Source: a virus. From it: a stretch of 64,000 bases of DNA. This document shows, in pieces, positions 11,114 through 63,999 of this stretch. The notes below the pieces were generated by a model that was not told where the DNA came from, ran no database searches, and saw only the letters and a program-made list of their open reading frames with translations. The stretch spans positions 103,972 through 167,971 of the IMG/VR virus record IMGVR_UViG_3300031521_000012, one strand, 5' to 3'. The position numbers were made by a program, and so were the translations under genes. Numbering within the stretch: position 1 is the first letter of the stretch; each line of letters starts with the position of its first letter.

Positions 11114-11126
11114 TATTATTTTTATT

Positions 11127-11134
11127 ATAAATAC
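11127..11134 (-). promoter_or_regulatory. GTATTTAT motif
   Basis: 13 bp upstream of 11113 start. Confidence 0.65.
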
Positions 11135-11153
11135 TTAATTAATTATTAGATTA

Positions 11154-13115: not shown

Positions 13116-13132
13116 TTTTTAACAATTTAATT

Positions 13133-13140
13133 ATAAATAC
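13133..13140 (-). promoter_or_regulatory. GTATTTAT motif
   Basis: Upstream of 13115 start. Confidence 0.65.
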
Positions 13141-13171
13141 TATTATATAGAGTTTCAATTGATAATTGTGC

Positions 13172-18544: not shown

Positions 18545-19195
18545 TTAAGTGTTATTTACTATATTAAAGAAATTTCCACCAGCATATGTATTTAAATCAC
18601 TCAAGTCCTTGATATATTCAAGCCTGTAATTTTTATCGAATGCTGATTGTTCTTGTCTTAATATAAATACATCATCGTTAATTTTCGGGTTACTAATTAT
18701 GTTTTCTTTATTCGGACTCTTATAATATGGTACATTAATGAAGTTTAGATCAGTAATGCCTTGAGGTGTGAATATATTAAGAGTTGTTCCCGAAGAACTG
18801 CCAGATATTATATCAACATATTGAATACCTCCTAAGTAATATATAATTTCACTTAATGGATTTGAATTTAATAAATCAACACCATCACTATTTATCGTCC
18901 CACCTGTTACATATTGCTTAGTAAAATCTGACGTTATTGTATATTTACGCAATTCAACCAATCTACTTATTGAAGTACCTGTTACTGTACTTGCAGTAGT
19001 TGGAATAATCGTAGTATTTCCAGTATACGAAGTATCTGCATCAAAAAAGCCAATATCATTGACAACCGATTTAAAACCAATCTTCATATGGTATACAGCA
19101 GTTAAATCGGGAACTATAATATATTTATTTCCTTGTGTTGTTGCTGTTATGCCAGTTGTTAATAATTGTAATATTGTTTTTTTAATCAATTCCAT
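18545..19195 (-). CDS. probable virion structural protein, Thr/Gly-rich
   Basis: ORF track; translationally coupled to the baseplate gene. Confidence 0.6.
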   Translation of the reverse strand: MELIKKTILQLLTTGITATTQGNKYIIVPDLTAVYHMKIGFKSVVNDIGFFDADTSYTGNTTIIPTTASTVTGTSISRLVELRKYTITSDFTKQYVTGGTINSDGVDLLNSNPLSEIIYYLGGIQYVDIISGSSSGTTLNIFTPQGITDLNFINVPYYKSPNKENIISNPKINDDVFILRQEQSAFDKNYRLEYIKDLSDLNTYAGGNFFNIVNNT

Positions 19196-21048
19196 TATGT
19201 AGTGCTTTTACGTAAAAATACTTTGATATCAACCGAGGGAAACCGGATCTCAAACATTGATTCAGGAACGGAATAAATAGTATTGTTAATAATTTTTATT
19301 TCACCTGTTTTTACGTCTAAAATATCTTGTGAGACAACATTATTAGAATATAACCCACCTTGTTTATTATAAACACGTAAACTAACGATGTTAATAACGC
19401 CATTGGCATCCAAAATTTGTCTTTGTAGTCTTCCTAGAAAGATATCTTGATTCATTTCGTGATTGTTAATATCCAAATAGTTTCTAACAATTGTTATAAT
19501 GCTATTAGCAACTTGATTATCTGCAATGTTTTCAACATATACATCAATATCGAAGGCTAAGTTAAATATTTTACCATCTTTAACTTCAACATAATCATTT
19601 ATCATTCTGTACTGGCTAAGATATTCAGTAATATTGTTTTTCAATAACGTATTACTTGAATTAGAAAGCTTTCCATCTGAACCGATATCCAATACTGATA
19701 TAACAATCTTATTATTAATTTTAAATGCATTGGCACGAAATGGTGAACCAAATTTTCCAGCCATTTTATATATCTGAAGCAAGTAGTCGGTTATTGAAAC
19801 ATCACGTTGCTGTGACGAAAAATTATATTTTATAAGTTGTCTAATCTGTTCAACGCTAAGTCCATCATTACCACCAATAGCAGGAATTGGGTTACTCACC
19901 TTTAAACTTCTAGTAACCGATTGTTGATAATCCTGACGAGAACCATTTGAGGTTAATGTGTAACTCCCCATTTGGGTTAATATTCTTGCGCCCACATTAG
20001 AATTAGAACCACCACCTGTTCGGTACTTAATAAAAAGAGTATAATTAGCTTTTAGTTTTTCGCCTAGAGCAGTATTATTTAGAAAATTCTCCAAAAAATA
20101 TTTATTACTAACACCTTCTTTAAGAAATCCACTCTTAAACGCATCACTATCGGCATCACCCGAACCAAACGTTATTTTACAATAACCATTAGGTGTAAAT
20201 TCTTTTATGAATTTTTTTGTAACATCAATCCATGTTGCTGTTTTTATTCCAGTAGGATTTGTTTGTGAACTCTGATAGTTTTCAGTGAAAACTCTTTGTT
20301 GTGCTAAGTAATCAACTTCATAATATCTATTAGTTGAATTATTGAATTCATTAGCTGTTGGTATAACAGAAAAATTAGTACCTTCCATCAATATAATACT
20401 ATCTATTTCAATAACATCAGGGTCTGGTAGTGTTAAACCGAAAAATGGAATAATATCGGTTGAATTGATAACACGTTTAAATATACTGGTTGTGCCATTT
20501 AACACAACCTCTCTTTTAGTTACATTATAGCTGACAATAATTCCATTCGAGTCTAAATTAGGTATAATTGATCGATTAGGGTCACCTAAACTACTAAGTG
20601 CCGAATTCCAATCAATTACATTCTGAGTTTCAAAGATTTTTCCACCACCAATTATTTGTGCACCAGCATCAAGAGTGGGATAATAAGAACCATCAGGGCG
20701 GTCACCCAAAACAGGAATTACCACCGTAAAGTCAACAATAGTAACTGAAGGTCGTTTAGCTGGTATGTTGAAACCCATGTTTTTAGCTATGTTTAATATA
20801 GATGCTCTTTGTTGGGCGTACTCAATTTGTGTTTCCTGAAAGTTACGATCTGTATTGATACTCAGGTTATTAGCGACACCAGCATTTAAATCAATAAGCA
20901 TTGCACCTATACTACTGTCTGTCAGGTCATTAAGAATTTCCCCATAATTTTGTCTGATTAGCGATATTAAATCCGTCCTAATTTCTCCAAATGTTCGGCT
21001 TCCAAAACGAATTATATTATTACTTGTATTATCTACTATTGTTGCCAT
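19195..21048 (-). CDS. baseplate wedge protein (T4 gp6/baseplate J-like)
   Basis: RTFGEIRTDL..SSIGAMLIDL..AQQRASILNIAKNMG..GGGSNSNV..AIGGNDGLSVEQIR..SQQRDVSITDY. Confidence 0.88.
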   Translation of the reverse strand: MATIVDNTSNNIIRFGSRTFGEIRTDLISLIRQNYGEILNDLTDSSIGAMLIDLNAGVANNLSINTDRNFQETQIEYAQQRASILNIAKNMGFNIPAKRPSVTIVDFTVVIPVLGDRPDGSYYPTLDAGAQIIGGGKIFETQNVIDWNSALSSLGDPNRSIIPNLDSNGIIVSYNVTKREVVLNGTTSIFKRVINSTDIIPFFGLTLPDPDVIEIDSIILMEGTNFSVIPTANEFNNSTNRYYEVDYLAQQRVFTENYQSSQTNPTGIKTATWIDVTKKFIKEFTPNGYCKITFGSGDADSDAFKSGFLKEGVSNKYFLENFLNNTALGEKLKANYTLFIKYRTGGGSNSNVGARILTQMGSYTLTSNGSRQDYQQSVTRSLKVSNPIPAIGGNDGLSVEQIRQLIKYNFSSQQRDVSITDYLLQIYKMAGKFGSPFRANAFKINNKIVISVLDIGSDGKLSNSSNTLLKNNITEYLSQYRMINDYVEVKDGKIFNLAFDIDVYVENIADNQVANSIITIVRNYLDINNHEMNQDIFLGRLQRQILDANGVINIVSLRVYNKQGGLYSNNVVSQDILDVKTGEIKIINNTIYSVPESMFEIRFPSVDIKVFLRKSTT

Positions 21049-24502: not shown

Positions 24503-25885
24503 TTATGTAGTCTCTAATGTTTTAGCAACTATTGCTTTATAAAATTCAGCACGCTTTTTTGTAACGGTTGCAAGATTATATTTATCTTTAAAATCTTCAT
24601 AAAGTTGTTCACCTAACCTTTTTCTTAAATCAGCATCTAAGATAAGGTTTTTTAAATGTTTCTGCCAATCCTTGTATGCTTGTTTACCTGTTGGTATTAA
24701 TACGCAGTTTTCTAAATGTTTTCCATCTACGTTATATGGTGGAATATCTGAGCAAACGATTGGAAGCTTTCTGCTCCAGCACTCAACTTGTTTCAAATTT
24801 GATTTCATTTTATTGAAATCATTGTCTTCAAGTGGTGCAATAACAATATCTGTTTCGTCTAATACGCTAGCATACATGTTAGCCTTTTGTGTCCAACGTC
24901 TTCCAAAGCTTCCTTCATCACTATATTTAACGTTTCTCTCATAGTTCATAAGCCACTGCATATAATCAGGATTGGTTATGAGTCTATGATTATCAGTTAA
25001 AACATTTTCATAATGTAAATATACACTTTCATCTGATTTAATATCACGTTTATTCGTGATAAATATTTTATCTCTATATTTTTCCTTTATTGCTTTAGAT
25101 ATTTTAGGTATCTTATCAACATCACCTCTTGAGCTATTAATAGCTTTCACTACTTCGTGCACCCATAAACCCTTTTTCTTGAGTTCTTCACCGAATTCCT
25201 GATTGAACGTAATATCTGTTGTGCTACCTTCAGTATCCCATCCAGCTAAAATCACCTTGAATTTATCTTTCAAACGATAATCTGAATTCAATACATTCAT
25301 TACACCTTCAAGTTGTTCAATATCTCCACTGTGGCTTGAACCTGCCATATATGTGATTCTCACACGACCATCAGGGTCAGGTTTCCAGTTGTTTTGGAAC
25401 TGTTTCATCCACGTAGGGTCAATTGAATTATATAATACTTCGACATTATCTCTACCAGTTGCTTTCCTTATTTCATTAGCAAATAAATCACTTGTTGTTG
25501 TAACATAATCAGCAATTTTTAGATTTTGTATGATAGGCGCTGCCATTTTATTTTCAACGCTCATTGCATAGAAAGGGTGCTTTTTATGTAGATTCCAATA
25601 ATCATCAATATCTACAACCAATAAAGTACCTGTTTTTCTCAACTCATTACTTAGTTTAATCATCTGACTGACATCATCCAAAAACTGACGATGATAATGA
25701 ATAATATGAAATGTTTTTAAATATTCAAGTATATTGGGGTCATTAAAGTCAATCGTTGGATTGATTTCTACATAAAATTCATCAGAATGATTTCTTTCTA
25801 GTTCCATTGCTGGTGTAAGTGTTCTGAAATAATTAACTCCAGCGGAATCCCGGTTGTAAAATAATATTCTAATTTTTCTGTCCAT
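24503..25885 (-). CDS. GT-B (GT4-like) glycosyltransferase
   Basis: GVNYFR..VVDIDDYW..ADYVTTTS..DIVIAPL..FNKMKSNLKQVEC..PIVCSDIPPY. Confidence 0.85.
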   Translation of the reverse strand: MDRKIRILFYNRDSAGVNYFRTLTPAMELERNHSDEFYVEINPTIDFNDPNILEYLKTFHIIHYHRQFLDDVSQMIKLSNELRKTGTLLVVDIDDYWNLHKKHPFYAMSVENKMAAPIIQNLKIADYVTTTSDLFANEIRKATGRDNVEVLYNSIDPTWMKQFQNNWKPDPDGRVRITYMAGSSHSGDIEQLEGVMNVLNSDYRLKDKFKVILAGWDTEGSTTDITFNQEFGEELKKKGLWVHEVVKAINSSRGDVDKIPKISKAIKEKYRDKIFITNKRDIKSDESVYLHYENVLTDNHRLITNPDYMQWLMNYERNVKYSDEGSFGRRWTQKANMYASVLDETDIVIAPLEDNDFNKMKSNLKQVECWSRKLPIVCSDIPPYNVDGKHLENCVLIPTGKQAYKDWQKHLKNLILDADLRKRLGEQLYEDFKDKYNLATVTKKRAEFYKAIVAKTLETT

Positions 25886-50349: not shown

Positions 50350-51481
50350 GTATTATTTCACTATTAATAATTATATTATTTATTTTTTCAACAATCATAT
50401 TCATTTGATTATCAACATCTCTTAAAAATTCCTTTTCGTTAATATGTATTATGTGACAGCCGAAATTTTCTTTAATATATTGCTCACGAATAACATCCTT
50501 TTCAGCAAATTTCTTAATTTTATGATACTTCTCGTCCCATTCAATACAAATATTATATTGTTCAATATAACCATCTACCCAATATTTTACAAATTTTTTC
50601 TCACCGCCATTTAATGCATGCTGGATTGGTATTTGGAGAATTGCTGAAAGCATGTCTAAATATATTAACGAATTGGCATTATATGCAGGTGTATGTCTGA
50701 GCCATTGTTCGCCATATCTTTCAATCATAGTGTTCGTAGCTTTTTCTGAAATTTCTTTATTCTGATGCGAAAATTCAAATCCATATCTTTCAATATTCGT
50801 TTTTTTCGCCCTTTCTTTTATTTCAGTACATTGCATTACATGCTCAACGCCATATTTTAATAAAACAGTTGCCCTCATTTTTTTCTTAACAGCATCAACC
50901 TCCATGGGATTTTCAGTACCATATTTTTCTAAAATAGCTAATCTCCTTTTTTTTCTAAATTCTTCTGTTTTCAGGTAAGAATCTACACCATATTTATCTA
51001 AACTAATCAATTTTTTCTTTTCTTTATATACATCAGCTTGTGTATAATGTTCAACGCCATATCTCACAATATTAGTTTTTTTAAATTTTCCATTAAAATC
51101 TGGATGCTTTGAATATGCAGTTACACCAAATTTTTTTAAATTAGAGTTTTTTAAATTGTTTTTTACTACATCAGATTTCATTGGATTTTCAAAACCATAT
51201 AAATTATAATTACTTTCAGAATATTTAGTCATAGAGCATTTATTGCTACATCCATAAAATCGTCCATTTTTAGTATTTTTATTATACGTTTTATAGCTCA
51301 AATATTTTTCTTTCCCACACATATCACATTTCACATGCAAAACTACATGACTACTCCTTTTTAAATCTGACACATTAATTAGAATATCCGTATCGATTCC
51401 AGTATATCTGTATCCCTTTTCAATTAAATATTTTTTATTGGATGCATGCCATTTTACGATAATAAATTCATCTAGTATCAT
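50339..51481 (-). CDS. homing endonuclease-like protein (Zn ribbon, KYG repeats, PD-(D/E)XK/DUF559-like)
   Basis: CDMC..CSNKC; KYGV repeats; YWVDGY..CIEWDEKYH. Confidence 0.8.
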   Translation of the reverse strand: MILDEFIIVKWHASNKKYLIEKGYRYTGIDTDILINVSDLKRSSHVVLHVKCDMCGKEKYLSYKTYNKNTKNGRFYGCSNKCSMTKYSESNYNLYGFENPMKSDVVKNNLKNSNLKKFGVTAYSKHPDFNGKFKKTNIVRYGVEHYTQADVYKEKKKLISLDKYGVDSYLKTEEFRKKRRLAILEKYGTENPMEVDAVKKKMRATVLLKYGVEHVMQCTEIKERAKKTNIERYGFEFSHQNKEISEKATNTMIERYGEQWLRHTPAYNANSLIYLDMLSAILQIPIQHALNGGEKKFVKYWVDGYIEQYNICIEWDEKYHKIKKFAEKDVIREQYIKENFGCHIIHINEKEFLRDVDNQMNMIVEKINNIIINSEIIHGT

Positions 51482-53274
51482 TTTTTCTTATGTTTATTTT
51501 TTATGATTTCAATAACCTCACCTAAAATAGATTCACTTATATTTGATTCATAATCTTCATTATCCATTACCTTGACAATTGATTTACGTTTATTTTCTAT
51601 TGCAGAAAACACATAGTCATCAATTGTATCTCTATATATCAAAGGATAAATACTCACTGGAAATCGCTGCGAAATTCTATGAATTCTATCTGCAACTTGA
51701 TCATAATCACCTACACTATAAGGTAAAGTCATTAAAAACATTTTAGATGCGCAAGTTAATGTTAATCCAAAACTACATGTTTGTATTGACCCAATGAACA
51801 CTTTTAAATTACTATTGGGGTCTTGAAATTGTTTGACAATTTCAGCACGTTCCTCAGCTGTTTGATCACCAGTATGGAGTCCAGCAACATCACCAAGTAT
51901 TTTTTTTAATTCATATAATGGCTCTTTGAAAAAATCAACAATAACTACTTTTTCGCCAGTTTCTAAAATATTCTCTATTAATTCAATAACTGGTTTTATT
52001 TTAAGATGCGATGTGTATTGACGAAGACGAATCATTAATGTTAATGGATTAGTTGTTGGGTTAGTTATAAATTCATTGGCAACACCTGATTCAATTTCAT
52101 CATATATTGAGCTTTCTTTATCATCCATTTCTAGTATAATTCTTTGATACGTTTTTTCAGGCAAATCTAAAGCATCTATTTTACGCTTGCGATGTGTATA
52201 TGGTGCTATCTTATAATACAATTCTTCTAACTTTGCTTCCGCATCATTGGTTACATATCCCCATCCACCGACATCATATGACATGCCACAATAATATTCC
52301 TGAAAATAAGTTTTTGATGCAAAATCTGCTGGAGATATCTGATTCATAACACTATAGATTTCTGCAGCACGATTGGGCATGGGAGTTCCGCTAAGGAATA
52401 TTTTACTTACCTTTTCATCTTTAAATATTTCGTTTTTAAATGTTCTTGCAAAATTTTTATATGTGTTTGATTTAGTGTTTTTCAACTTCGAGCTTTCATC
52501 ACAAATAACAGCATCTATTTTACCAATTTCAAGACTTTTCCATTTTCTATTAAAATCATCTTTATTGCCAGTGTTGAAGAAGTCATAATTCACAATAATA
52601 TATTTAGCATCGGCAATACCACATTTATTCTTTTTCCAATTAATAATATGTGAATTACTATTCGTAAACTTCTCAACCTCGTTTTTAAAATTATGCTTCA
52701 AACTGTTGGGTGTTACCACAATAACCTTCTTGAAATTATTCATTTCTACATACAATATACTCGAAAGTGTTTTACCAAGACCCATTTCATGGGAGATTAG
52801 TGTACTACGTGTAATATTCATAAATAAAGCTGCTACAACCTGATGTTTATATAGCTTAATGCCGTTATTTAATAATCCATGCATTTTTTCGCTATATTGT
52901 TCGTATGTGGTTTCCAGTTCTTCCTTATATTTAACCCAATTTTCTTTTTTAATATTTAAATCAGCTATGAAGACACGTTTTTCTTCTTCATCCTTTTCAA
53001 GTTTTTCGATTTGTTGGATGAACACAGTACGACTAGCTTCTGTTCCGAAGTCAAAATGTATTTTGCTTGATGTTTTATATTTCTTAATTAATGAATATAG
53101 TGATAGAGTACTAACTTCCCATGCTAGGTTTAAGCCACTCCATTTACGTGTGTCGTATGGTAATTCCTTGATACGCAACAAAAGTTGATCGTTTGGGTTA
53201 AATCTAAGATAATAGGCTTGTTTTCTACCTATACGCTCACAATGTACAATAAACTGGATGATATTCTCTGCCAT
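51478..53274 (-). CDS. SNF2-family helicase (HARP/SMARCAL1-like)
   Basis: EMGLGKT, DESS, LSGTPMPN, FGLTLT, QVADRIHRI; N-terminal W....AW HARP-like segment. Confidence 0.9.
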   Translation of the reverse strand: MAENIIQFIVHCERIGRKQAYYLRFNPNDQLLLRIKELPYDTRKWSGLNLAWEVSTLSLYSLIKKYKTSSKIHFDFGTEASRTVFIQQIEKLEKDEEEKRVFIADLNIKKENWVKYKEELETTYEQYSEKMHGLLNNGIKLYKHQVVAALFMNITRSTLISHEMGLGKTLSSILYVEMNNFKKVIVVTPNSLKHNFKNEVEKFTNSNSHIINWKKNKCGIADAKYIIVNYDFFNTGNKDDFNRKWKSLEIGKIDAVICDESSKLKNTKSNTYKNFARTFKNEIFKDEKVSKIFLSGTPMPNRAAEIYSVMNQISPADFASKTYFQEYYCGMSYDVGGWGYVTNDAEAKLEELYYKIAPYTHRKRKIDALDLPEKTYQRIILEMDDKESSIYDEIESGVANEFITNPTTNPLTLMIRLRQYTSHLKIKPVIELIENILETGEKVVIVDFFKEPLYELKKILGDVAGLHTGDQTAEERAEIVKQFQDPNSNLKVFIGSIQTCSFGLTLTCASKMFLMTLPYSVGDYDQVADRIHRISQRFPVSIYPLIYRDTIDDYVFSAIENKRKSIVKVMDNEDYESNISESILGEVIEIIKNKHKKK

Positions 53275-53291
53275 AATATATCAATATCAGG

Positions 53292-53322
53292 CAAAGATAG
53301 AGAATATTAGCTGAATGTCAAA
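53292..53322 (-). promoter_or_regulatory. Bacteroidota primary-sigma promoter (TTTG-N19-TATCTTTG)
   Basis: Exact consensus match; heads the SNF2-QueC-PolB operon. Confidence 0.8.
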
Positions 53323-53334
53323 GGGAAATTTTAA

Positions 53335-54206: not shown

Positions 54207-56354
54207 TTAGCAAATTCTTTTAGCTCTTATCATACCATATGTTACGCAAGAAGTATTTGCTCCACGTGCATAATTAATAGTTAGACAATGACAACCAGCT
54301 GTTAATGTAATATCTCTTGATAGCGATGCTGATGACACCCAACTACCTTCTGCACCACATGAATGGTAACATGTTCCAATTGTAACACCATCCAAAGCAA
54401 ACCAAGCAAAAGTATTACCAACACTAGTATTTCCAAACTGAGCACTAAAATCAATCTGATATCTACCTGCTTTAAATGTCCATGGTGTTCCTGATAAATA
54501 AATAACAGTGCCTGCACCAGTGCTTGTTGATAATGTTGTATTATCACTATAAAAATAAGAATCACTACCACCAGTTAATTTTACTTGTCTTAGGACACAT
54601 GTTGTTGGGTTATAGTATAATGCACGATCTGTTGAAATATCACCTGTAGCAGGGCTGCCTAAACATGTAGTACCTCTAAATATTGTTGTGCCAGTTGTAG
54701 TAAGACTGGAATTAATTACAATTGCACCAGTAAATGTGGCTCCGCTTAAAAATGCTTTCTGACCTAATTTGGTTTGAGTTGCGCCAGTATAAATGTTATA
54801 AGCTGTTTTTGTTACATATGTAGCTGGAACGGTTGTACCTGTGTATGTATTGAATATAGTAGTTAGTAATCTATTATTTATACTTGTTTGAGTTGTACCA
54901 GTATAAACATTAATCTGAGTCTTAGTATAGTAAGTGTTAGGCGCTGTAGTACCTGTGTATGTGTTAAATATAGACTTACTTGCAAATGCAGCAGGTGCTG
55001 TAGTGCCCGTGTAACCATTAAAAACAGTTGTTAATAGTCTGGAGTTTATGTCTATTAACGTAGTGCCAGTATATGTATTGATTTGTGTCTTATTGTAATA
55101 AGTGTTGGGAACTGTTGTTCCAGAATATGTATTAAACGCTGTTTTGCCTAAGTAAGTGCTAGGTGCTGTTGTTCCGCTATAACTGTCAAATATTGAAGTT
55201 AGTAATCTATTATTAATATTAGTTAATGTACTACCAGAATACGTATTAAACGATGATGTATTCAACTTACTGTTTAATACTGTTGATAATGTTCCAATTG
55301 TTGTGTCAACATTGAAGCTATTTCCTGTCCAAGAAATCGAATTTCCTGCTAAACCATTTCCATCAACACACATTACACCAGTATTATAGCACAACCCAAT
55401 ACCTGCTAAGCTTTGATTGATGTATAAGCCCGATGCATCGTTACACAACCCACAATTATTTGCTAATTTAGTGGCTACAACATAGTTTCCGCCTGTTGTT
55501 GTTACATTTATTCCATTTCCTTCGCTAATACCCTTTACCGAACTAAATAACACAAATGTCAATGGCGTTACACCAACATTAATTGGGTCGGGTGTTGTTA
55601 ATATCCATGATGTACTTTGATTAGTGATTCCTGTTAATACAAAAAAATATGATCCATTTACCGCTTGAGTATTACCACTAAAATCGGGTGCGCGTTGCCA
55701 TGCGCCAACTGCTGCAATATATACGCCATTTGTTGCAGGAAGAATTTGATTTTTAGCTAAAATTCTCATGCCTACCGCAACTTGTTTACCACCTATAATA
55801 GGTAAACCACTAAGTGCAGTATCACCTGTTGTAGCTAAGTTAACTGCAATTTGTGGAACCAATCCGCCTGAACGATTATCCACATATTCTTTATCAACAA
55901 GCGAACGATTTGTAAATGTTAGCGAATAATCATTATTATATTGAATACCTGTGGGAATTACTCTATTATCAGTAAATATTACCTGTACATCACCAACACT
56001 AAATTTAGTTTTTTCCACTTTGGCTACATTGTTTCCGTGTAAATCAATACTACTGCCATTACTGACAATATTTATATTGCCAACAGAAAATAGATTTAAA
56101 TTATTTGAAGCTAATGTGAAATCATGTGTATTACCCGATATAGTAGTAGCTTGTGATAAGTTACCACCTAATGCAACATATCTTCCTGATTTACTTAAGC
56201 CATTTGTACCACCAGTAATGGCAGAATCTAAAATGGGTTGTGTACTACCAGTATATGGATTAAATATACATGTTGAAACCATATCGGTGTTATCAAAGTC
56301 ACCAATGAATAAATGTTTTTTTCCCGTTAAAAGATCAATTGAAAATGTTGCCAT
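54207..56354 (-). CDS. fibre/decoration-like virion protein with Y(S/T)GTT repeats
   Basis: GMRILAKNQ..NGVY..WQRAPD fibre-type domain; nine Y[ST]G[STA]T units. Confidence 0.75.
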   Translation of the reverse strand: MATFSIDLLTGKKHLFIGDFDNTDMVSTCIFNPYTGSTQPILDSAITGGTNGLSKSGRYVALGGNLSQATTISGNTHDFTLASNNLNLFSVGNINIVSNGSSIDLHGNNVAKVEKTKFSVGDVQVIFTDNRVIPTGIQYNNDYSLTFTNRSLVDKEYVDNRSGGLVPQIAVNLATTGDTALSGLPIIGGKQVAVGMRILAKNQILPATNGVYIAAVGAWQRAPDFSGNTQAVNGSYFFVLTGITNQSTSWILTTPDPINVGVTPLTFVLFSSVKGISEGNGINVTTTGGNYVVATKLANNCGLCNDASGLYINQSLAGIGLCYNTGVMCVDGNGLAGNSISWTGNSFNVDTTIGTLSTVLNSKLNTSSFNTYSGSTLTNINNRLLTSIFDSYSGTTAPSTYLGKTAFNTYSGTTVPNTYYNKTQINTYTGTTLIDINSRLLTTVFNGYTGTTAPAAFASKSIFNTYTGTTAPNTYYTKTQINVYTGTTQTSINNRLLTTIFNTYTGTTVPATYVTKTAYNIYTGATQTKLGQKAFLSGATFTGAIVINSSLTTTGTTIFRGTTCLGSPATGDISTDRALYYNPTTCVLRQVKLTGGSDSYFYSDNTTLSTSTGAGTVIYLSGTPWTFKAGRYQIDFSAQFGNTSVGNTFAWFALDGVTIGTCYHSCGAEGSWVSSASLSRDITLTAGCHCLTINYARGANTSCVTYGMIRAKRIC
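54778..55262 (-). repeat. hierarchical coding repeat: 18-20 aa units within a 56-aa (168 bp) super-period
   Basis: IN(N/S)RLLT recurs at 55201, about 55033 and 54865. Confidence 0.85.
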
Positions 56355-56370
56355 GTGATAAATATTTTTT

Positions 56371-56378
56371 ATAAATAC
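56371..56378 (-). promoter_or_regulatory. GTATTTAT motif
   Basis: 16 bp upstream of 56354. Confidence 0.65.
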
Positions 56379-56414
56379 TTAAATATTTGCGATTTGTTTC
56401 TAAGTATATAAAAT

Positions 56415-56444
56415 AAAAAAGGTGATAAAATTTTATCACCTTTT
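56415..56444. terminator. perfect palindrome / terminator
   Basis: aaaaggtgataaaattttatcacctttt. Confidence 0.75.
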
Positions 56445-56501: not shown

Positions 56502-56750
56502 CTATACATACGTATAACTTAAACGTTCATCCCAAATAAAGCTAAACATTTGATTTCCGTCAGGAAATAATGCGGTTGCCCAAACATCGCCTGACTTACT
56601 AATTTTTTTAATTTGCCAGATTGGTTTACTGGTATCATTTCCATTATTCGATAAACCAAAATAAAATTCAGTTGCACCTGCTTCGTGAATTAATTCGATT
56701 GGTTGAAAATCGGGAAATTGAAGGTTCATATCTGTGTTGAAATCTGTCAT
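56502..56750 (-). CDS. small hypothetical (probable virion) protein
   Basis: WQIKKI..FIWDERLSYTY; GTATTTAT at 56786-56793 within the glf 3' end. Confidence 0.65.
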   Translation of the reverse strand: MTDFNTDMNLQFPDFQPIELIHEAGATEFYFGLSNNGNDTSKPIWQIKKISKSGDVWATALFPDGNQMFSFIWDERLSYTYV

Positions 56751-56783: not shown

Positions 56784-57872
56784 TCATAAATACTTTAATC
56801 CACTGAATTCTTCCAAAGCTTTTCTAACAATATCTGTCATATCATAATACACATAATCAGCAAGTCTTCCACCGAAGATAACATTTGTTTCATTTACCAT
56901 CAATTGTTTATATTGATGATATTTCACTTTGTTTAATCCATCACTGATTGGGTAATAAGGATCGCCAATATCAGTTGGGTATTCCTTAGTTATTATTGTG
57001 TTTGACTGATCACCAAATTCAAAGTGTTTATGTTCGATAATTCGTGTGTAGGGAATATTAATATCAGTATAATTCATTCCTGCAATTCCCTGATAATCTT
57101 TTATCGGTAATATTTCGTGCTTAAATTCTAAACTACGATAATCTAGTTTTCCAAATTTATAATCATAAAATTCATCAACGCTACCAGTATAAATAATTAT
57201 ATCAGCTAATGAATTAAAGTATTCTCTATCACTAAAATAGTCGCAATCCAATAAAACATCGACACCTGACAATAATTTTTCGAATATAGGCGTATATCCA
57301 CCAATAGGTATGCCTTGATAAGTATCAAAATAATAATTATCATCATATGTAAGTCTAATTGGTATTCTTTTGATAATGCTTGCTGGTAATTTAGATGGCT
57401 CACGTCCCCATTGTTTAGTGGTATAGCCCTTAATAAAAATATTATATAAATCCCAACCAACTTGCGATATCATCCAATCCTCTAAGTTAACTGGATTATC
57501 AATATTAATCTTAACCATATTAAAATAATCTATAGCCTCTTCGGGTGTTTTAACACCATATAGTTGATTAAGTGTTAATAGGTTAATTGGAAATGAAAAT
57601 ATATTATCTTTATAATTAACTTTAGGTCTATATGAGAAATGATTAAATTCAGCATATTTACACATATAGTCCCAAACTCGTTTATCTGATGTATGAAATA
57701 TGTGAGGACCGTACTTATGAACAGTAATTCCCTCAACGTTTTCAGTATGACAATTGCCACCAATATGTGATCTTTTATCAATAATCAATACCCTTTTACC
57801 ATTATCGGTTAATTCTCTTGCTGCTATGCTGCCATACAGTCCAGCACCGACTATAAGATAATCGTATTTCAT
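56784..57872 (-). CDS. glf: UDP-galactopyranose mutase
   Basis: IVGAGLYG, HIGGNC, HKYGPHIFHT, GYTTKQWG, YRSL, TRIIEHKHF, PYYP, GRLADYVYYDM. Confidence 0.96.
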   Translation of the reverse strand: MKYDYLIVGAGLYGSIAARELTDNGKRVLIIDKRSHIGGNCHTENVEGITVHKYGPHIFHTSDKRVWDYMCKYAEFNHFSYRPKVNYKDNIFSFPINLLTLNQLYGVKTPEEAIDYFNMVKINIDNPVNLEDWMISQVGWDLYNIFIKGYTTKQWGREPSKLPASIIKRIPIRLTYDDNYYFDTYQGIPIGGYTPIFEKLLSGVDVLLDCDYFSDREYFNSLADIIIYTGSVDEFYDYKFGKLDYRSLEFKHEILPIKDYQGIAGMNYTDINIPYTRIIEHKHFEFGDQSNTIITKEYPTDIGDPYYPISDGLNKVKYHQYKQLMVNETNVIFGGRLADYVYYDMTDIVRKALEEFSGLKYL

Positions 57873-58687
57873 TGTTTTAGTTTTAAAAAACCATTATCAC
57901 AATATGTTGAAATTCGTATCCAATCATCACACCAAATATCTTTAGGATTGTCTGGTACATCAGCACCAAACCATGTATCAGGAGCAACAACAATTTTATC
58001 AGGATTTCTCGATAGGTAAGCACCCCACCAAGAGAATGATGAATTAGATATTACGAAATGACTACACATTGACATTAACCATAAAGCATCACAGTCATAA
58101 TAATCATCATTATTGAATACACAATTAGGTAATCGAATATTGTCTTTACACCATTGAATATCGTCACTTATGACCAGAATGATATCATAATCAGGTATGT
58201 GTTTAATTGCTTCATATATATATTCTAATGTAATAACTGGATGTCTTGTTGGTTGAGTGAGATAATCACCTCTACGAACATTAATTACCAGTACTTTGCT
58301 ATCTTTCAGAAATGGAAAACTATTATAAGCTCTTTCTTCAAATTCTTTTGTTGGAGAATATAAATCTTTTATTACTTCGGTATATTTACTAAAAAACTTC
58401 TCTGATTGATACCAACCTGCAAAGCATGTCGGACAGCCATCATAAGGTTTTAATTCATTATATTCAAATTCAGACCAAATAATTCTACCATGTTCATATG
58501 AACAACCAATTCTAAAATCAAGCTTTCTAAATAATGTTTTTTCTAAATGTTGTGAAGATGAATCTCTTGAAGGCGCTATGAATTGTCTGTTATATTCCAA
58601 TGACTTTGTATATCCATGTGCTAATTGAAACATCATATTTCCAGTTCTTCCTTGTAGTCTGGATGTTATATAATTATTTGTTATCAT
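57869..58687 (-). CDS. GT11 alpha-1,2-fucosyltransferase-like
   Basis: GRTGNMMFQ, GWYQSEKFF, NVRRGDY, SDDIQWC, SNSSFSWWGAYL. Confidence 0.9.
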   Translation of the reverse strand: MITNNYITSRLQGRTGNMMFQLAHGYTKSLEYNRQFIAPSRDSSSQHLEKTLFRKLDFRIGCSYEHGRIIWSEFEYNELKPYDGCPTCFAGWYQSEKFFSKYTEVIKDLYSPTKEFEERAYNSFPFLKDSKVLVINVRRGDYLTQPTRHPVITLEYIYEAIKHIPDYDIILVISDDIQWCKDNIRLPNCVFNNDDYYDCDALWLMSMCSHFVISNSSFSWWGAYLSRNPDKIVVAPDTWFGADVPDNPKDIWCDDWIRISTYCDNGFLKLKQ

Positions 58688-58690
58688 AGG

Positions 58691-59383
58691 TTAGAAATTT
58701 CTAATAATTTCTTTAGTAAATGAATGTAAATACGGGAATAAACCAGTACCATTTGTGTATTTGCCTTGCTGAATATCAATATTGCTCATGCTAGTCCTTT
58801 GTACCATACCTAATGGATAAACAACATATTTTTTAAATAAAGTTCCTAGTTCTTGACTATCTAAACATTGATTACCCAACCAGCCATCTAAAGCTGAATC
58901 AGTTTCAGGATTATATTTTAAAAAACGATCATAAGCACGTTTATTTACACCATATGCATGACCTGTTAAAACAGTTCGTGGACTTAAAAGGTGTTCTGAT
59001 ACCATATTTAGTTTTTCATCGATTATTATTCCACCTAAATATATGATATCCCAATCATCAAAGTATTGTAATTCATCTAATGCCTGTTCAATTGCATTAA
59101 TACCTTTACCATAAAACATAGCATCATCTTCTAAGATCAAAACATTGTCTAAATCCAAGTCCTTTGCATATTGAATAATGTTTCTATGTGCAGTTCCACA
59201 TGCAATATGACCAGCACGACAAGGAAATTCATAGCCCTTATCAACAGCTAAAACACCAGATACTCTTCCAAAGAAGTTTTCTAAACCAACATTGCGCATT
59301 TCGTTTAGAAATTCTAATTTTCTATCTAGTCTTTCATCTAAGTTAATATAAACACCTCTGGTAAAAAATTCATTTATTTTCAT
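58691..59383 (-). CDS. GT25 glycosyltransferase
   Basis: YINLDERLDRK, GHIACGTAH, LILEDD, WDIIYLG, GHAY. Confidence 0.88.
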   Translation of the reverse strand: MKINEFFTRGVYINLDERLDRKLEFLNEMRNVGLENFFGRVSGVLAVDKGYEFPCRAGHIACGTAHRNIIQYAKDLDLDNVLILEDDAMFYGKGINAIEQALDELQYFDDWDIIYLGGIIIDEKLNMVSEHLLSPRTVLTGHAYGVNKRAYDRFLKYNPETDSALDGWLGNQCLDSQELGTLFKKYVVYPLGMVQRTSMSNIDIQQGKYTNGTGLFPYLHSFTKEIIRNF

Positions 59384-59387
59384 ATAT

Positions 59388-60557
59388 TTATAGTTTATTT
59401 ATGAAGTCAGACCACATTTGACCAACTCTATTAACATTAAATCTGTCGGTAATTGAGAAACTTCCATATTCTCTAATGTCTCTTTTTAGTTCATCGTTTT
59501 GCTCAATCAATTCAATAACTTCAACGATATTATCAACACATTTAAATTTTCCTTCTAAGTCCTTAGATAGCGGTTCATTTTGCATTTCAATTGGATTGGT
59601 ATCTTTAGGAAATGGAAGCCAAACACATAATCCATTAAAATTTTCAGGTAATGCACCTAATGGATATGTTATTACTATTGCGCCCAAAGCAATTGCTTCT
59701 GCCACAACGCATGAAAAAGTATCTTTATGTACATCTTGATATGGCGTATATAAAGGATATATGAAATATTCACTTTCTGCTATGTGTTGGAATAAGGTGC
59801 GCTTATCAACTCCATTATGTTTATAAAAGAAATCATCAGGATGTGGGTGAGTGCACATTAAATAATCAAATGCATGAAACTCCTTATCATCAAAGCCTAA
59901 TTGTCTAACAGCTTCCAATGCAATATCACCACCTCTTGCCCAAGCTGCATGAAATACAAATTTATGTTTCTTTCTAATTGGATTGGTTGCTAGAACTTCA
60001 TTAATCATTTCATCCATTACTGGATTTGGAATAATTGTGGTTATGGCAGATACTTCTCTGATTGCTCTAGCCATGACTGCAACATTCATCGATTTTTCCC
60101 AATTGGATATATTAACAAAACCAAATGTTAGATTATTGTTTTTAACATAATCAATTATTTGATCAATACCATAAATCCATTGCATGTGTGACCAATAAAT
60201 TAATGATTTAGTTACTTTGATTTTTAACTTATCGTAATCTTGAAACCAAAGCATACTAACCAATATATCAAACTCTAAATTATCAATTCCATCAAAATTA
60301 ATATTGGTATATTTAACCCCATAGAATTCTTCACCAAAAGTATTAATTATTCCTTTAGCATTATTTTCTATAATCAACTGTGGCTCTAATTCATCGGCAA
60401 CAAATACTACTTCATGCCCTTGTTTAGCTAAATATTCAGCAATCAACACTGCTGAACCATCAGTGCCTGAACCACCACCATTACCATATCTCAAATTATA
60501 TCCGTTGATATAATTTGATCTTCTACTGTTTCCTACAACTAAAAACGCTATTCGCAT
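59388..60557 (-). CDS. GT-B (GT4-like) glycosyltransferase
   Basis: GGSGTD..LAKQGHEV..DTFSCVVAEAIALG..GALPE. Confidence 0.82.
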   Translation of the reverse strand: MRIAFLVVGNSRRSNYINGYNLRYGNGGGSGTDGSAVLIAEYLAKQGHEVVFVADELEPQLIIENNAKGIINTFGEEFYGVKYTNINFDGIDNLEFDILVSMLWFQDYDKLKIKVTKSLIYWSHMQWIYGIDQIIDYVKNNNLTFGFVNISNWEKSMNVAVMARAIREVSAITTIIPNPVMDEMINEVLATNPIRKKHKFVFHAAWARGGDIALEAVRQLGFDDKEFHAFDYLMCTHPHPDDFFYKHNGVDKRTLFQHIAESEYFIYPLYTPYQDVHKDTFSCVVAEAIALGAIVITYPLGALPENFNGLCVWLPFPKDTNPIEMQNEPLSKDLEGKFKCVDNIVEVIELIEQNDELKRDIREYGSFSITDRFNVNRVGQMWSDFINKL

Positions 60558-60583
60558 TCGATTAATTATTATGTGTTATTATA

Positions 60584-61840
60584 TTATATATTTTTTTCGT
60601 ATCTATCGCTCCATTGCTTATCTTCATCAAATAAATACATCACAACCTTTTTAGGCTTATCTATTGACTCAAAAGAGACTGTAATTTGATTACATATTAA
60701 ATTTACATATTGTGGGTCTTTCTCAATTGTGAAGTCATGTCGATATAATTCATTATCTGATTGAGTTAAAACCCCTAATGTCATAAACTTAGGCTTGGTA
60801 AAATTATGCTTCTTGAAGAAATCCAAATCCCATTCGATTGTAATATCATATTTATTTCTAATGAATTGTGCTTCCCAATCGATAGGATTGGGTGGTTCTT
60901 TCACCTTTGATGTATATTCTTGAATTCTACATGTTTTAAAATCAAATCCACCGTATACTTCATAATCATGAACCGTTCTTACCTTACCTAATCCATATTT
61001 GCCCATGTCGATGTCATAATCTTCAGTACCAAACATTTGTCTTGTCTTATTTCTGGCAAAAGCATCCCTATCACCAGATAGCTTTTCAGTTTTGCTTTGT
61101 TGTGAGTGATCTTCCCAATGCTTAGTTCTGTAGTTACGTGTGAATTCATGCCACATTACCATTCTATATGGACTAAAGAAGTCATAACCATTTGTATATG
61201 CACGAACACTCATTGTTGTTTCTTCAGTATAACCACCAAAATAAATATCAGGGTCATATGGAACTTCTTTAATGAATTTGCCTTTTACAAAATAAAAGTG
61301 ACCACTCAATGTCCTTGCCCTGATTACCTTAGTTCTTTCTTTGTAGTCTTGGATATACCAAGGCATCGACATTAATAATCTATCTGCGCTGAATTCATAT
61401 TGCGACATTAATGAAGGTAATTGCTCATATTCACATGAACATGCTTTAGGATTGAATGGAGTGCAATAAGTGGTTATAATTGGCTTTTTGCTGACTTCTA
61501 ACGCTTGTTTATAGTCTTGCAATACTATTTCATCCCAATCCTGTACAAACCTGTGATGCGAGTCTATTTGCAATGTAAATTCTTCATTATCATATAGACT
61601 ATTAGTAATATTCCTAGCCCAACCCAAGCCACAACTTTCAGTGTAATGATATTTAGCAACTCTGAATTGTGGATTATTGTCGTATGTATCTATTGGCTCT
61701 GTTTCATCGTATTGCCAACAAATACCGAACACCAGATTTTCAGGATGTTTAGCTTTAGCTAGCATGTCTTTAATTGTTGGAATTAGTTCGGGGTCACGAT
61801 ATGATGCAATTTGAACCAGCGTTTTACCTTTCTTTATCAT
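60584..61840 (-). CDS. GT60 polypeptide alpha-GlcNAc transferase-like (Skp1 Gnt1/TcOGNT family)
   Basis: VQIASYRDPE..AKHPENLVFG..WQ..GLGWAR..QIDSHHRFVQDWD..YDPDIYF..EE..R.YT.GYD. Confidence 0.88.
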   Translation of the reverse strand: MIKKGKTLVQIASYRDPELIPTIKDMLAKAKHPENLVFGICWQYDETEPIDTYDNNPQFRVAKYHYTESCGLGWARNITNSLYDNEEFTLQIDSHHRFVQDWDEIVLQDYKQALEVSKKPIITTYCTPFNPKACSCEYEQLPSLMSQYEFSADRLLMSMPWYIQDYKERTKVIRARTLSGHFYFVKGKFIKEVPYDPDIYFGGYTEETTMSVRAYTNGYDFFSPYRMVMWHEFTRNYRTKHWEDHSQQSKTEKLSGDRDAFARNKTRQMFGTEDYDIDMGKYGLGKVRTVHDYEVYGGFDFKTCRIQEYTSKVKEPPNPIDWEAQFIRNKYDITIEWDLDFFKKHNFTKPKFMTLGVLTQSDNELYRHDFTIEKDPQYVNLICNQITVSFESIDKPKKVVMYLFDEDKQWSDRYEKNI

Positions 61841-61847
61841 AAAAATA

Positions 61848-61877
61848 ATGGTATTGGCTACTAATTGCCAATACCAT
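61848..61877 (-). terminator. hairpin downstream of tail fibre gene
   Basis: atggtattggc-N8-gccaataccat followed by TATTTTT on the minus strand. Confidence 0.65.
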
Positions 61878-61878
61878 G

Positions 61879-61909
61879 CAAAGATAATGAATATCTGATT
61901 TTAATCAAG
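61879..61909 (-). promoter_or_regulatory. Bacteroidota-type promoter (TTG-N19-TATCTTTG)
   Basis: Heads the glycosyltransferase operon. Confidence 0.7.
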
Positions 61910-61929: not shown

Positions 61930-63999
61930 TTAACTATTCAATCGTTCCATTATAATTCTTATGTTCTCTTTCAGTTCACTAATTTCATTTTTAAGACAAG
62001 TATTCTCTTTTGTTAATTCCTGTATACCTTTCCATGCAAATGACATCATTGAATAGCTATTGATAGCATTCTTATTATCATTTATTAAATGTTTATCATA
62101 TGTGTCAACTAGTTCGTCTTCAAATACTGGAAATAATGTCAAATCACATTGATTCTTATATCTACCTTCATGAATGATTGTGTTATTAATTAAATTTAAA
62201 CTACAGCCTGTCCAACCTTGAGTTTGATCAGTATAAATATCTTTAGATGATCTTAAAGAGTTGAAGCCACCACCAGTTGCAGTAACACTACCTGAGAAGG
62301 TAGCATTGCCATTATTAGCTATTGTAACAACATCACTACCGTTATTGAATGATAAAAAAGGATTACTACCTTTATTTATAACTCTTACTAATGCAAAACT
62401 ATTGTCATTTGAACCACCTGCGTATTCTTGATCTATAAATAGAGCATTGTTATTTGATGCACCTGAATACACACTACTTATCCTACCCCCCACATAAGCA
62501 TTCCCATTCACTGCCAATTTGTTGCCAGAGGTAGGGTCGGAAGTGTAGCCTAACCAAAGAGAACCTGCTGCATTTAATCTCATTTTCTCACTACTATCCC
62601 CAGCACCATTTCTTGTCCAAAAATATAAATCACCGTAAACATCCCCTGTAACAATATTTCCTATTCCACCAAAAGGATGACTTGCACCATATGTGTTAGA
62701 TGTGTGATAAAATGTAATTTCATCTGTATTCCCTAATGTGTAAGATGTAGGATTATATAAAATAAGTTGAGACGTTGCACTAACAATTTCTACTTTAGCT
62801 CTCGGACTATTAGCACCGAATCCAGTAGTTCCATTAAATATACTATTCCCACCAACTCCAATCCCTCCCCCTACTACTAATGCTCCAGTAGTTGAACTTG
62901 TTGAGGGGGTTGTTGAAGAAACATAAGCATTAATCATATTAAAGTTACCTGACTGATTTAATGTAGCACCAACAGAACCACCATTATAAAGTAATTCCAA
63001 TTTACCGACATTTGATTGTATCCCTGCACTCCAAACATTATTGTTCAGAGATATTTTTCTAATATCACTGGAGACATTAATGAAAGTAGTTGTATTACTG
63101 CCATCATCACTAATCAAACTATTAACCAATCCCCCTGTACCCATCTTAGGGATATAGTTAGCTGTAAGGTTAGTAGGGTTGATCTGTGTAGTAATAACAG
63201 GATTATTAAATATATGACTACCTACTGCATTATAAAGTAAGTTAGTACTGCTCTTACCAATACTATAACTATTACTAACACCATAATCAAATAATACATT
63301 ATAGTTAGCAGGAAGAATAAGATTAGTAAGAGATACAACATCATTACCTGTTATTCTACCTGTAGCACTCACACTCGATGAGAATGTGGCTGCACCTGTT
63401 AGATTTAATATACCACCATTAGCATCAATATTAATACTTTTACCACTTGGGCCAACTATATAAAAACTACCTGTTCCTATACCTGACCTCATAGTGTATA
63501 ACACTGCTTCACTTCCTAAATCATTTTGGAGTGAGAGATATTTTGTTGTAGTCGAAGAAGTTCCTTTAATGGTTACAATATCATTAAAATTTGCCCCAGT
63601 ACCATACAAAGTACCAGTCAAAGCATTCCCTGAACCTGCTGAAAGAGGTAGATAAGCAGTAGAAGTATAAGCATTTGAACCAAGACCAATCCAAGTTCTA
63701 ATTAAAGGTGCTGTACTGTAATGCCATTTCCCACTTGCGTTATCAGCTGTAAGCATATAATCAATAGATGTAGCTTGTGTATTATCAAATAGTTGGCCAT
63801 TCCATTTTTCAGCATTCAAATTACTAACCATAGTAGTACTATTCACTGTAAATGGTGCTGTTCCTGTTGCTACTGTGGATTGAAACTGTGTAGCACTCAC
63901 ATACCCATCCTTACTAACTCTCATCTTTTCTCCAAGAACATTATTAAGTTTTGAAAAGATCACAATATCAGAACTGATATTGCTCATATCTGTTTGAAC
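61930..63999 (-). CDS. tail fibre with C-terminal intramolecular chaperone (peptidase S74-like); 5' end probably beyond the window
   Basis: STVATGTAPFTVNSTTMVSNLNA, EKMRL, GFNSLRSSKDI, C-terminal coiled coil WKGIQEL; frame stays open to the window edge. Confidence 0.85.
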   Translation of the reverse strand, partial: VQTDMSNISSDIVIFSKLNNVLGEKMRVSKDGYVSATQFQSTVATGTAPFTVNSTTMVSNLNAEKWNGQLFDNTQATSIDYMLTADNASGKWHYSTAPLIRTWIGLGSNAYTSTAYLPLSAGSGNALTGTLYGTGANFNDIVTIKGTSSTTTKYLSLQNDLGSEAVLYTMRSGIGTGSFYIVGPSGKSINIDANGGILNLTGAATFSSSVSATGRITGNDVVSLTNLILPANYNVLFDYGVSNSYSIGKSSTNLLYNAVGSHIFNNPVITTQINPTNLTANYIPKMGTGGLVNSLISDDGSNTTTFINVSSDIRKISLNNNVWSAGIQSNVGKLELLYNGGSVGATLNQSGNFNMINAYVSSTTPSTSSTTGALVVGGGIGVGGNSIFNGTTGFGANSPRAKVEIVSATSQLILYNPTSYTLGNTDEITFYHTSNTYGASHPFGGIGNIVTGDVYGDLYFWTRNGAGDSSEKMRLNAAGSLWLGYTSDPTSGNKLAVNGNAYVGGRISSVYSGASNNNALFIDQEYAGGSNDNSFALVRVINKGSNPFLSFNNGSDVVTIANNGNATFSGSVTATGGGFNSLRSSKDIYTDQTQGWTGCSLNLINNTIIHEGRYKNQCDLTLFPVFEDELVDTYDKHLINDNKNAINSYSMMSFAWKGIQELTKENTCLKNEISELKENIRIIMERLNS

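Follow-up and report, generated by a model that had tools for sequence, protein, structure and literature searches.

What would a phage make with five adjacent genes for sugar-transferring and sugar-converting enzymes? Such a cassette, headed by a glycosyltransferase gene of family GT60, lies in the window analysed here, the whole 64 kb (64,000 nucleotides) that form the final part of the 167,971-bp IMG/VR virus record IMGVR_UViG_3300031521_000012. A sequence-only reading had described it as five contiguous co-oriented genes at 56784-61840, for GT60, GT4, GT25 and GT11 glycosyltransferases and a UDP-galactopyranose mutase (Glf), and had proposed that they build a mucin-type O-glycan on virion proteins. 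The coordinates and the gene order proved exact, with all five genes on the minus strand, and profile matches to Pfam and TIGR models bore out the families GT60, GT25, GT11 and Glf. We consider it most likely, with slightly better than even confidence, that the enzymes act in the cytoplasm and O-glycosylate structural proteins of the phage at Thr-rich linkers. A link between GT60 and proteins with proline/threonine (PT) tracts recurs in related phages and in bacteria, and the present window is a weaker instance of it.

The enzymes of the cassette

The GT60 protein matched PF11397 with 192 bits (cut-off 21; E 2.7e-56) over profile positions 4-45 and 98-350 of 352. Residues D93-S94-H95 and H231 were invariant among 26 homologues and match the DxH...H metal site of the superfamily of polypeptide N-acetylgalactosamine (ppGalNAc) transferases. 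The AlphaFold model (pLDDT 92.4) has a GT-A fold, and nearly all Foldseek matches obtained with it were polypeptide GalNAc-transferases, with ppGalNAc-T1/T2/T3/T4 at the top (E 1e-10). VIA-align, which is independent of Foldseek and covered 48,161 chains, ranked mouse GalNAc-T1 first (Z 21.1; 274 residues at 3.4 A root-mean-square deviation) and T. gondii GalNAc-T3 second (Z 19.3), while the remaining GT-A enzymes scored 16.7 or less (TarP, Z 15.3). Sequence and profile searches of GT60 and of its GT4-like neighbour against PDB sequences gave nothing useful. GT60 is predicted to be the initiating transferase, its modelled fold being nearest to the protein-initiating ppGalNAc-transferases, and the earlier primer-plus-extender logic fits this result. 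One search of metagenomes returned 3244 homologues, and some uncultured-phage proteins in UniProt bear the label 'Glycosyltransferase, GlcNAc'.

Behind the catalytic domain, GT60 has an all-beta C-terminal domain (~325-418) that was modelled confidently. It is kept in the homologues from bacteria and from Xanthomonas phage XacN1, and it is missing from one phage lineage (L045-L051), where the alignment stops at about residue 319. By analogy with the lectin domain of ppGalNAc-transferases, this domain may serve to bind the acceptor or a glycan.

The fold comparisons also bear on the idea that the cassette enzymes attach an oligosaccharide to phage DNA as protection against restriction, in the manner of T4 glucosyltransferases and of systems that attach glycans to 5-hydroxymethylcytosine (5hmC). 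Phage clusters of several glycosyltransferases that add di- or trisaccharides to 5hmC do exist (Pyle et al., bioRxiv 10.1101/2023.12.21.572611), and the window contains a QueC-like gene, a sign that this phage may modify its DNA. However, DNA-acting phage glycosyltransferases resemble JGT/TarP or the T4 beta-glucosyltransferase and adjoin base-modifying enzymes (bioRxiv 10.1101/2023.12.21.572611), whereas GT60 was nearest to the ppGalNAc-transferases, with TarP lower. Moreover, no hydroxymethylase of the thymidylate synthase type, C5-methyltransferase or Tet/JBP gene was found with PF00303, PF00145 and PF12851 (the last without a positive control), either in this contig, which is ~51% complete, or in G001 and G003, two complete relatives that bear the cassette. 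We regard a role in DNA hypermodification as highly improbable.

The second enzyme had been labelled GT4. Its AlphaFold model (pLDDT 92.5) has the GT-B fold with two Rossmann domains, and its best PDB folds were retaining GT4 enzymes (tll1591, PimA, MshA, BshA and PglA; E 5e-12 to 1e-9, TM-score 0.55-0.68). To this extent the label holds. However, all Pfam scores were below threshold (PF13692, 19.2 bits with a cut-off of 27; PF00534, 14.8 with 26.4; PF13439, 13.1 with 28.5), and the canonical E-x7-E motif is absent: E287 is invariant, position 295 is Val and the next conserved Glu is E305. We therefore file the protein as GT4-like (GT4L) and not as a member of GT4. None of its 582 homologues carried a precomputed Pfam domain. 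GT4L had no match in GenBank phages, XacN1 included; other cassette partners were not searched for there.

Taken alone, the GT25 protein was a marginal match to PF01755 (25.6 bits, cut-off 24). The same profile was matched by 19 of 22 orthologues (best E 1.1e-19), in which E85-D86-D87 is invariant, and a profile of the family matched procollagen galactosyltransferase 1 (ColGalT1; E 5e-14), Mimivirus R655 (E 5e-11) and bacterial GT25 structures (E 1e-5). The GT11 protein matched PF01531 with 93.4 bits over profile positions 33-297 of 298. Enzymes of family GT11 carry the GDP-fucose motif HxRRGDY and the motif SxxSFSWW; the phage protein has NVRRGDY, with Asn for His, and SNSSFSWW. From its sequence, it is predicted to be a capping enzyme of the alpha-1,2-fucosyltransferase type. 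Single-sequence searches of PDB with GT11 and GT25 were empty. A GDP-mannose dehydratase, as a source of GDP-fucose, was sought in the contig and was absent, and the searches that covered it found no sugar-nucleotide synthesis gene besides that for Glf.

Glf exceeded the cut-off of the TIGR00031 equivalog model (364.9 bits, cut-off 303.75), matched PF03275 (E 6e-73) as well as PF13450, and has the flavin adenine dinucleotide-binding Rossmann motif VGAGLYG at residues 8-14. The best PDB match was 4mo2 (E 1.8e-128); 1i8t, the Glf of E. coli, was matched with E 8e-126. The enzyme is accordingly a predicted supplier of UDP-galactofuranose (UDP-Galf). The structure 4mo2 is that of the Campylobacter jejuni mutase, which also interconverts the pyranose and furanose forms of UDP-GalNAc, so that UDP-GalNAcf may be an alternative product.

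Neither transmembrane segments nor signal peptides were found in any of the five enzymes, which are thus predicted to be soluble. The transcription unit includes a sixth gene, orf82, and a hydrophobic segment was found in none of the six proteins.

Cassettes and Pro/Thr tracts in phages and bacteria

A scan of IMG/VR yielded 56 loci with GT60 relatives, which gave 36 lineages after dereplication at 90% GT60 identity. GT4L directly follows GT60 in 25 of the 36 lineages, and Glf occurs with both in 21 of the 23 evaluable lineages, either at the end of the run or just upstream. Between these core genes are zero to several variable ones, including GT25, GT11, a second GT4-like copy, a GT1-like gene, FkbM-type and other methyltransferases, and genes without assignment. 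This pattern of conservation indicates a core of GT60, its GT-B partner and Glf, with GT25 and GT11 as one optional outer set among several. GT11 was confined to cassettes with GT25 (11/11 lineages), a nesting which fits GT25 acting before GT11.

As the constant partner of GT60, GT4L is a candidate for the enzyme that extends the core. Minimal cassettes (e.g. L055) consist of GT60, GT4L and Glf and hold two transferases in all. Unless another locus supplies a transferase, UDP-Galf has to be the donor for one of these two. Co-occurrence points weakly to GT4L as the best candidate for the Galf transferase. We rejected GT4L as a proven Galf transferase: Glf is present without GT4L in L046-L051, and GT4L without Glf within 10 kb in L033 and L035. 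The previous statement that no Galf transferase is clearly identifiable stands.

Co-occurrence across jumbo phages had been named as a check of the glycosylation proposal, and in the 36 lineages PT-tract proteins were enriched beside the cassette. A PT-tract protein was the immediate upstream neighbour of GT60 in 13/36 lineages and the next neighbour downstream of the cassette in 5/30, compared with 24/375 among the other open reading frames (ORFs) of the flanks (Fisher p 3e-6, uncorrected for phylogeny). Several PT-tract regions were present in every related near-complete genome that was searched.

The same proximity was seen in bacteria of several phyla, where a long PT protein ends at the point where a GT60 homologue starts (Sphingomonas, Opitutaceae, Vicinamibacterales, Saprospiraceae and others). 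In Sphingomonas sp. BE123 (L120, 4435-15890), the order is PT protein, GT60, GT60, a core domain protein of an extracellular contractile injection system (eCIS) and a tape measure protein of a contractile injection system, which places the system in contractile-tail machinery. The PT protein of BE123 has 1186 aa and a glycoside-hydrolase-like domain of the Rv2525c type. In Jiulongibacter sediminis (L121, a Bacteroidota chromosome), a GT60-carbamoyltransferase pair stands beside a PT protein, along with an FkbM-HtrL fusion.

Full-length homologues that include the C-terminal domain were found in bacteria and in phages XacN1, Xoo-sp13, CM1 and RAS14 (32-39% identity). In XacN1 (AP018399.1, 203370-223508; L059/L060), ORF334 is such a homologue (33% identity) and is directly followed by a gene for a 765-aa carbamoyltransferase. 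Approximately 9 kb from ORF334, right after the baseplate wedge genes, lies ORF325, whose 3314-aa product contains PT tracts. As XacN1, Xoo-sp13 and Stenotrophomonas phages CM1 and RAS14 are all in culture, the glycosylation proposal is open to direct testing.

We propose the following pathway. GT60 would start the chain on Thr or Ser of phage structural proteins, preferably in Pro/Thr linkers, most likely with alpha-GlcNAc from UDP-GlcNAc. The GT-B enzyme GT4L would then add a second sugar, and Glf would turn UDP-Galp of the host into UDP-Galf for one of the transferases, for which GT4L is the best candidate by co-occurrence. GT25 and then GT11 would build an optional branch with a GT11-type cap, which would be alpha-1,2-fucose if the enzyme behaves like its family. 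The enzymes would be made from a host-type promoter before late genes are expressed. In this scheme the donor sugars and linkages, the sequence in which the enzymes act, the acceptors, the timing and the effect on the virion are all inferred.

More tentatively, and with somewhat less than even confidence, we suggest that GT60-led cassettes are a widespread and hitherto undescribed prokaryotic and phage counterpart of mucin-type O-glycosylation. Their soluble polypeptide-initiating transferase and its private GT-B partner would coat the Pro/Thr linkers of contractile-tail machines, such as the baseplates and fibres of jumbo phages and bacterial eCIS, with glycans. Selection on the particle surface would make the outer sugars vary in a serotype-like manner (Galf, a fucose-capped GT25/GT11 branch, methyl or carbamoyl groups). 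If the present cassette works as its make-up suggests, mucin-like glycan coats are built on tail, baseplate or fibre linkers by thousands of phages in the environment, and bacterial contractile injection systems do likewise. The coats could influence how stable the particles are, how well they resist proteases, and how they recognise hosts or are themselves recognised by defences or grazers; the type of glycan could then be read from the variable middle genes.

The sequence-only reading had also named PT stalks as sites of the glycan, but no PT tract is found beside the cassette in this window. In a scan of the whole 168-kb contig, one PT protein was detected among 244 ORFs. It has 653 aa, a Pro/Thr linker of ~80 residues (~428-510) and a late-type motif at -25, and it is encoded downstream of baseplate genes (baseplate wedge PHROG match at 19195-21048). 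Homologues of its N-terminal domain occur in two phages that have the cassette, G001 and G002; in G002 this copy and a PT tract overlap. The linker of this protein is the best acceptor candidate in the available half of the genome.

The neighbours of the cassette are the most Ser/Thr-rich proteins of the contig, and the contig scan found no PT tract in either. The 715-aa protein downstream matched PHROGs for tail fibre, head decoration and virion structural proteins, has the highest Ser+Thr content of the contig (25%) and is preceded by the late-type motif GTATTTAT 24 nt before its ATG. At ~355-540, it contains about nine tandem units of ~22 residues with (F/I)NxY(S/T)G(T/S)T, which is the motif previously read as an acceptor site, [ST]Gx[TS]. 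The units look like a structural fibre repeat, and nothing ties them to glycosylation. The 685-aa protein upstream has a short SSTTPSTSSTT patch. Peptidase_S74 clusters made up 27 of its 30 Atlas feature matches (score 0.93-0.94), which we treat as a lead only; Pfam and PHROG gave no match to the protein, and the Peptidase_S74 Pfam domain was undetected even at E 5. The description of the cassette as lying between fibre genes thus holds in part, with PHROG matches on the downstream side and the Atlas lead on the upstream side.

Adjacency of the fibres was rejected as evidence that they are acceptors, as relatives do not share this context. The different context in relatives indicates instead that the cassette is a mobile module whose position between fibre genes is not conserved. 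The flanking Ser/Thr-rich fibres are possible but unsupported acceptors, and an H-antigen-like Fuc-Gal-GlcNAc structure, [ST]Gx[TS] acceptor sites and receptor engagement, all of which had been proposed, are speculation. The locus contributes four points: an architecture of core plus variable genes, the dependency of GT11 on GT25, a promoter of host type, and an instance in which PT genes are not adjacent.

Promoter type and other possible targets

In front of the unit stands a single promoter-like element, read from the sequence as CTTG-N19-TATCTTTG, which is plausibly a promoter of the host sigma-A type. The TATCTTTG box, with TTTG-N19, also precedes the helicase gene at 51478-53274; ahead of the exonuclease gene at 6562-8145 stands another box of the TAnnTTTG form, TAAGTTTG. 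In seven relatives (L014, L015, L018, L024, L026, L032 and L036), TAnnTTTG is found 21-31 nt upstream of the GT60 start. Promoters of this form fit a Bacteroidota host. No convincing late or ECF (extracytoplasmic function)-type motif was found upstream of the cassette. Of the earlier proposal of one promoter for five genes, the single element in front is retained. However, its type is that shared with replication genes and not the late motif of the flanking fibre gene, and orf82 follows the five enzyme genes as a sixth ahead of the terminator.

Several observations weigh against glycosylation of virion proteins. The host-type promoter is that of replication genes, while fibre and PT genes have the late motif. 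The sole PT protein of the contig is encoded 44 kb from the cassette, with none adjacent, and in the complete relative G001 the cassette lies >70 kb from PT tracts. In the loci with the closest relatives of this GT60 (73-75% identity; L003-L008 and L048), the cassette is surrounded by small genes, and the nearest 10 kb contain neither a PT gene nor a fibre gene. The neighbourhood statistics are phylogenetically non-independent. According to CheckV, the record is ~51% complete, with about half of the genome absent. Finally, the GT25, GT11 and Glf families are best known from the synthesis of lipooligosaccharide (LOS), O-antigen and capsule.

This last point is shared with the hypothesis that the cassette remodels an envelope glycan of the host (LOS, O-antigen, capsule, or an S-layer or surface glycoprotein), blocking superinfection or changing the cell surface. 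A host-type and probably early promoter would suit such a role, and the variation among the middle genes is reminiscent of serotype diversity. However, the cassette encodes no membrane protein, flippase, polymerase or polyprenyl-phosphate transferase, its enzymes are all soluble, and GT2 family matches were zero in the contig. The conserved initiator is nearest to polypeptide transferases, and the neighbourhoods in phages and bacteria consist of PT proteins and contractile-tail machines, not of polysaccharide loci. We consider envelope remodelling unlikely.

Soluble enzymes and a host-type promoter are consistent with glycosylation of cytoplasmic proteins outside the virion, such as regulatory proteins of host or phage. 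This would be comparable to the action of Gnt1, a cytoplasmic member of GT60, on Skp1, or to that of bacterial effector glycosyltransferases. The setting in the closest relatives also agrees with it: the genes around their cassettes are small and look early, and neither PT nor structural genes adjoin them. A multi-enzyme, hypervariable glycan with methyltransferases would, however, be unusual for a regulatory modification, and the repeated adjacency to PT proteins of structural type and to eCIS genes would be left unexplained. Non-virion targets appear to us unlikely, and modification of structural proteins on Thr-rich linkers remains the function that we favour.

Known systems and further features of the locus

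Phages that decorate their own virion proteins are a known kind, as seen in mycobacteriophages, and giant viruses do the same. Virion glycosylation is well established in eukaryotic viruses; to our knowledge, experimental proof in phages comes mainly from mycobacteriophages. Freeman et al. are said to have described in 2023 the glycosylation of mycobacteriophage virions, on the C-terminal tails of capsid and tail-tube subunits. Common to that system and to our proposal are phage glycosyltransferases (accompanied by methyltransferases in relatives of the present cassette) that modify structural proteins of the phage itself within the cytoplasm. The two differ in enzyme families, in hosts and in acceptors, for which PT linkers of tail, baseplate or fibre-type proteins are proposed here. 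The arrangement is also not that of mycobacteriophages, as the promoter is host-type and capsid and tail-tube genes lie outside the neighbourhood; the mechanism is analogous.

Giant viruses likewise assemble glycans on virion proteins with several virus-encoded enzymes independently of the host (PBCV-1 capsid, Mimivirus fibrils), although their hosts are eukaryotic and their glycans and acceptors are different. The viral folds nearest to GT60 include Megaviridae and Pandoravirus proteins.

Known GT60 enzymes are protist polypeptide alpha-GlcNAc-transferases (the T. cruzi mucin ppGlcNAcT and Dictyostelium Gnt2) together with Gnt1. They share with the phage enzyme PF11397, a GT-A fold with DxH and, as the neighbourhoods in phages and bacteria suggest, an apparent preference for Thr-rich acceptors. 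In T. cruzi mucin glycans, galactofuranose also extends alpha-GlcNAc-Thr, which parallels the constant pairing of GT60 with Glf. Unlike the protist enzymes, the phage GT60 is soluble and has no Golgi anchor; it has an all-beta domain added at its C-terminus, and a GT-B partner of its own. The ppGalNAc-transferases of family GT27, which initiate mucin-type O-glycosylation in animals and apicomplexans, are the nearest solved folds, and the DSH of the phage enzyme has the same form as their Mn site. However, identity to them is 13-17%, and the phage protein belongs to another CAZy family and has neither a ricin-type lectin domain nor a membrane anchor.

Phage systems of the Gtr type that modify O-antigen use membrane components (GtrA flippase, a GtrB-type GT2 and an integral-membrane serotype glycosyltransferase); here, none of the six proteins has a hydrophobic segment and the contig gave no GT2 match. 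The GT60 homologues of cultured phages and eCIS loci are located near PT-tract proteins of baseplate or contractile-tail context, but their tailoring differs: XacN1 and Jiulongibacter have a carbamoyltransferase, whereas Sphingomonas has GT60 in tandem. In the literature that could be searched, we found no paper on phage GT60 enzymes and none on a GT60-initiated, PT-linked form with a private GT-B partner and Glf.

Table 1. Features of the cassette and its surroundings (positions in the window)
Feature	Position	Strand	Basis or remark
GT60-family glycosyltransferase, 418 aa	60584-61840	minus	PF11397; GT-A domain ~residues 1-320, all-beta C-terminal domain ~325-418
GT4L, divergent GT4-like GT-B glycosyltransferase, 389 aa	59388-60557	minus	AlphaFold fold match
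GT25-family glycosyltransferase, 230 aa	58691-59383	minus	PF01755
GT11-family glycosyltransferase, 272 aa	57869-58687	minus	PF01531
UDP-galactopyranose mutase Glf, 362 aa	56784-57872	minus	TIGR00031 equivalog
orf82, small protein	56502-56750	minus	final gene ahead of terminator
Intrinsic terminator, 12-bp stem and T-run	56417-56444	minus	terminator scan; ends the unit after orf82
Host-type promoter candidate	61879-61909	minus	CTTG 61906-61909, N19, TATCTTTG 61879-61886
Hairpin, perfect 11-bp stem, then TATTTTTATG	61848-61877	minus	terminator scan
Upstream neighbour, 685-aa fibre- or spike-like protein	61930-63987	minus	Atlas lead
Downstream neighbour, 715-aa tail-fibre-like protein	54207-56354	minus	PHROG matches
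PT-tract late protein, 653 aa	11154-13115	minus	whole-contig PT scan

The window has a G+C content of ~30% and carries nearly all genes on the minus strand, and its PHROG matches include DNA polymerase, helicase, primase, exonucleases, homing endonucleases and a baseplate wedge protein. Megablast of the cassette region against GenBank phages gave zero matches. The junctions between the five enzyme genes, from GT60 to Glf, measure 26, 4, 3 and -4 nt. A further glycosyltransferase-like protein of 460 aa is encoded away from the cassette, with tail-type genes nearby (24503-25885, minus strand); it matched phrog_7162 (E 4e-33) and no Pfam family.

The product of orf82 had three homologues in metagenomes (81-82 aa, 60-68% identity), and their occurrence elsewhere indicates that the gene is real. 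It matched no Pfam family and had no counterpart in the 56 related loci. The late-type motif GTATTTAT occurs at 56793-56786 on the minus strand, within the last codons of the Glf gene and 43 nt before the orf82 ATG. Thus orf82 may also be transcribed late on its own; the match could be due to chance, as this 8-mer has 36 copies in an AT-rich genome.

The hairpin between the promoter candidate and GT60 starts 2 nt past the TATCTTTG box, extends into the GT60 start codon and is not conserved in relatives. It could act on the fibre gene upstream, as its terminator, or on the operon, as an attenuator or as a stabilising or leader structure at the 5' end. Transcripts of the fibre gene would meet a full terminator there, and those started at the promoter would begin within or just before its 5' arm.

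Three classes of upstream motif were recognised in the record. The ECF-type class (TGTAAC-N16-CGTAT) precedes many small genes. The late-like class, GTATTTAT(A/T), is found 21-28 nt before the ATG of the genes for the PT protein, a 1464-aa protein, the 715-aa fibre, a 2370-aa polyprotein and others, and the host-type class (TTTG-N19-TAnnTTTG) is found ahead of the helicase gene, an exonuclease gene, the GT60 operon and a few other genes. Examples in the window are at 11116-13171, 51478-53334 and 54207-56420. The existence of three classes suggests a three-tier programme of transcription.

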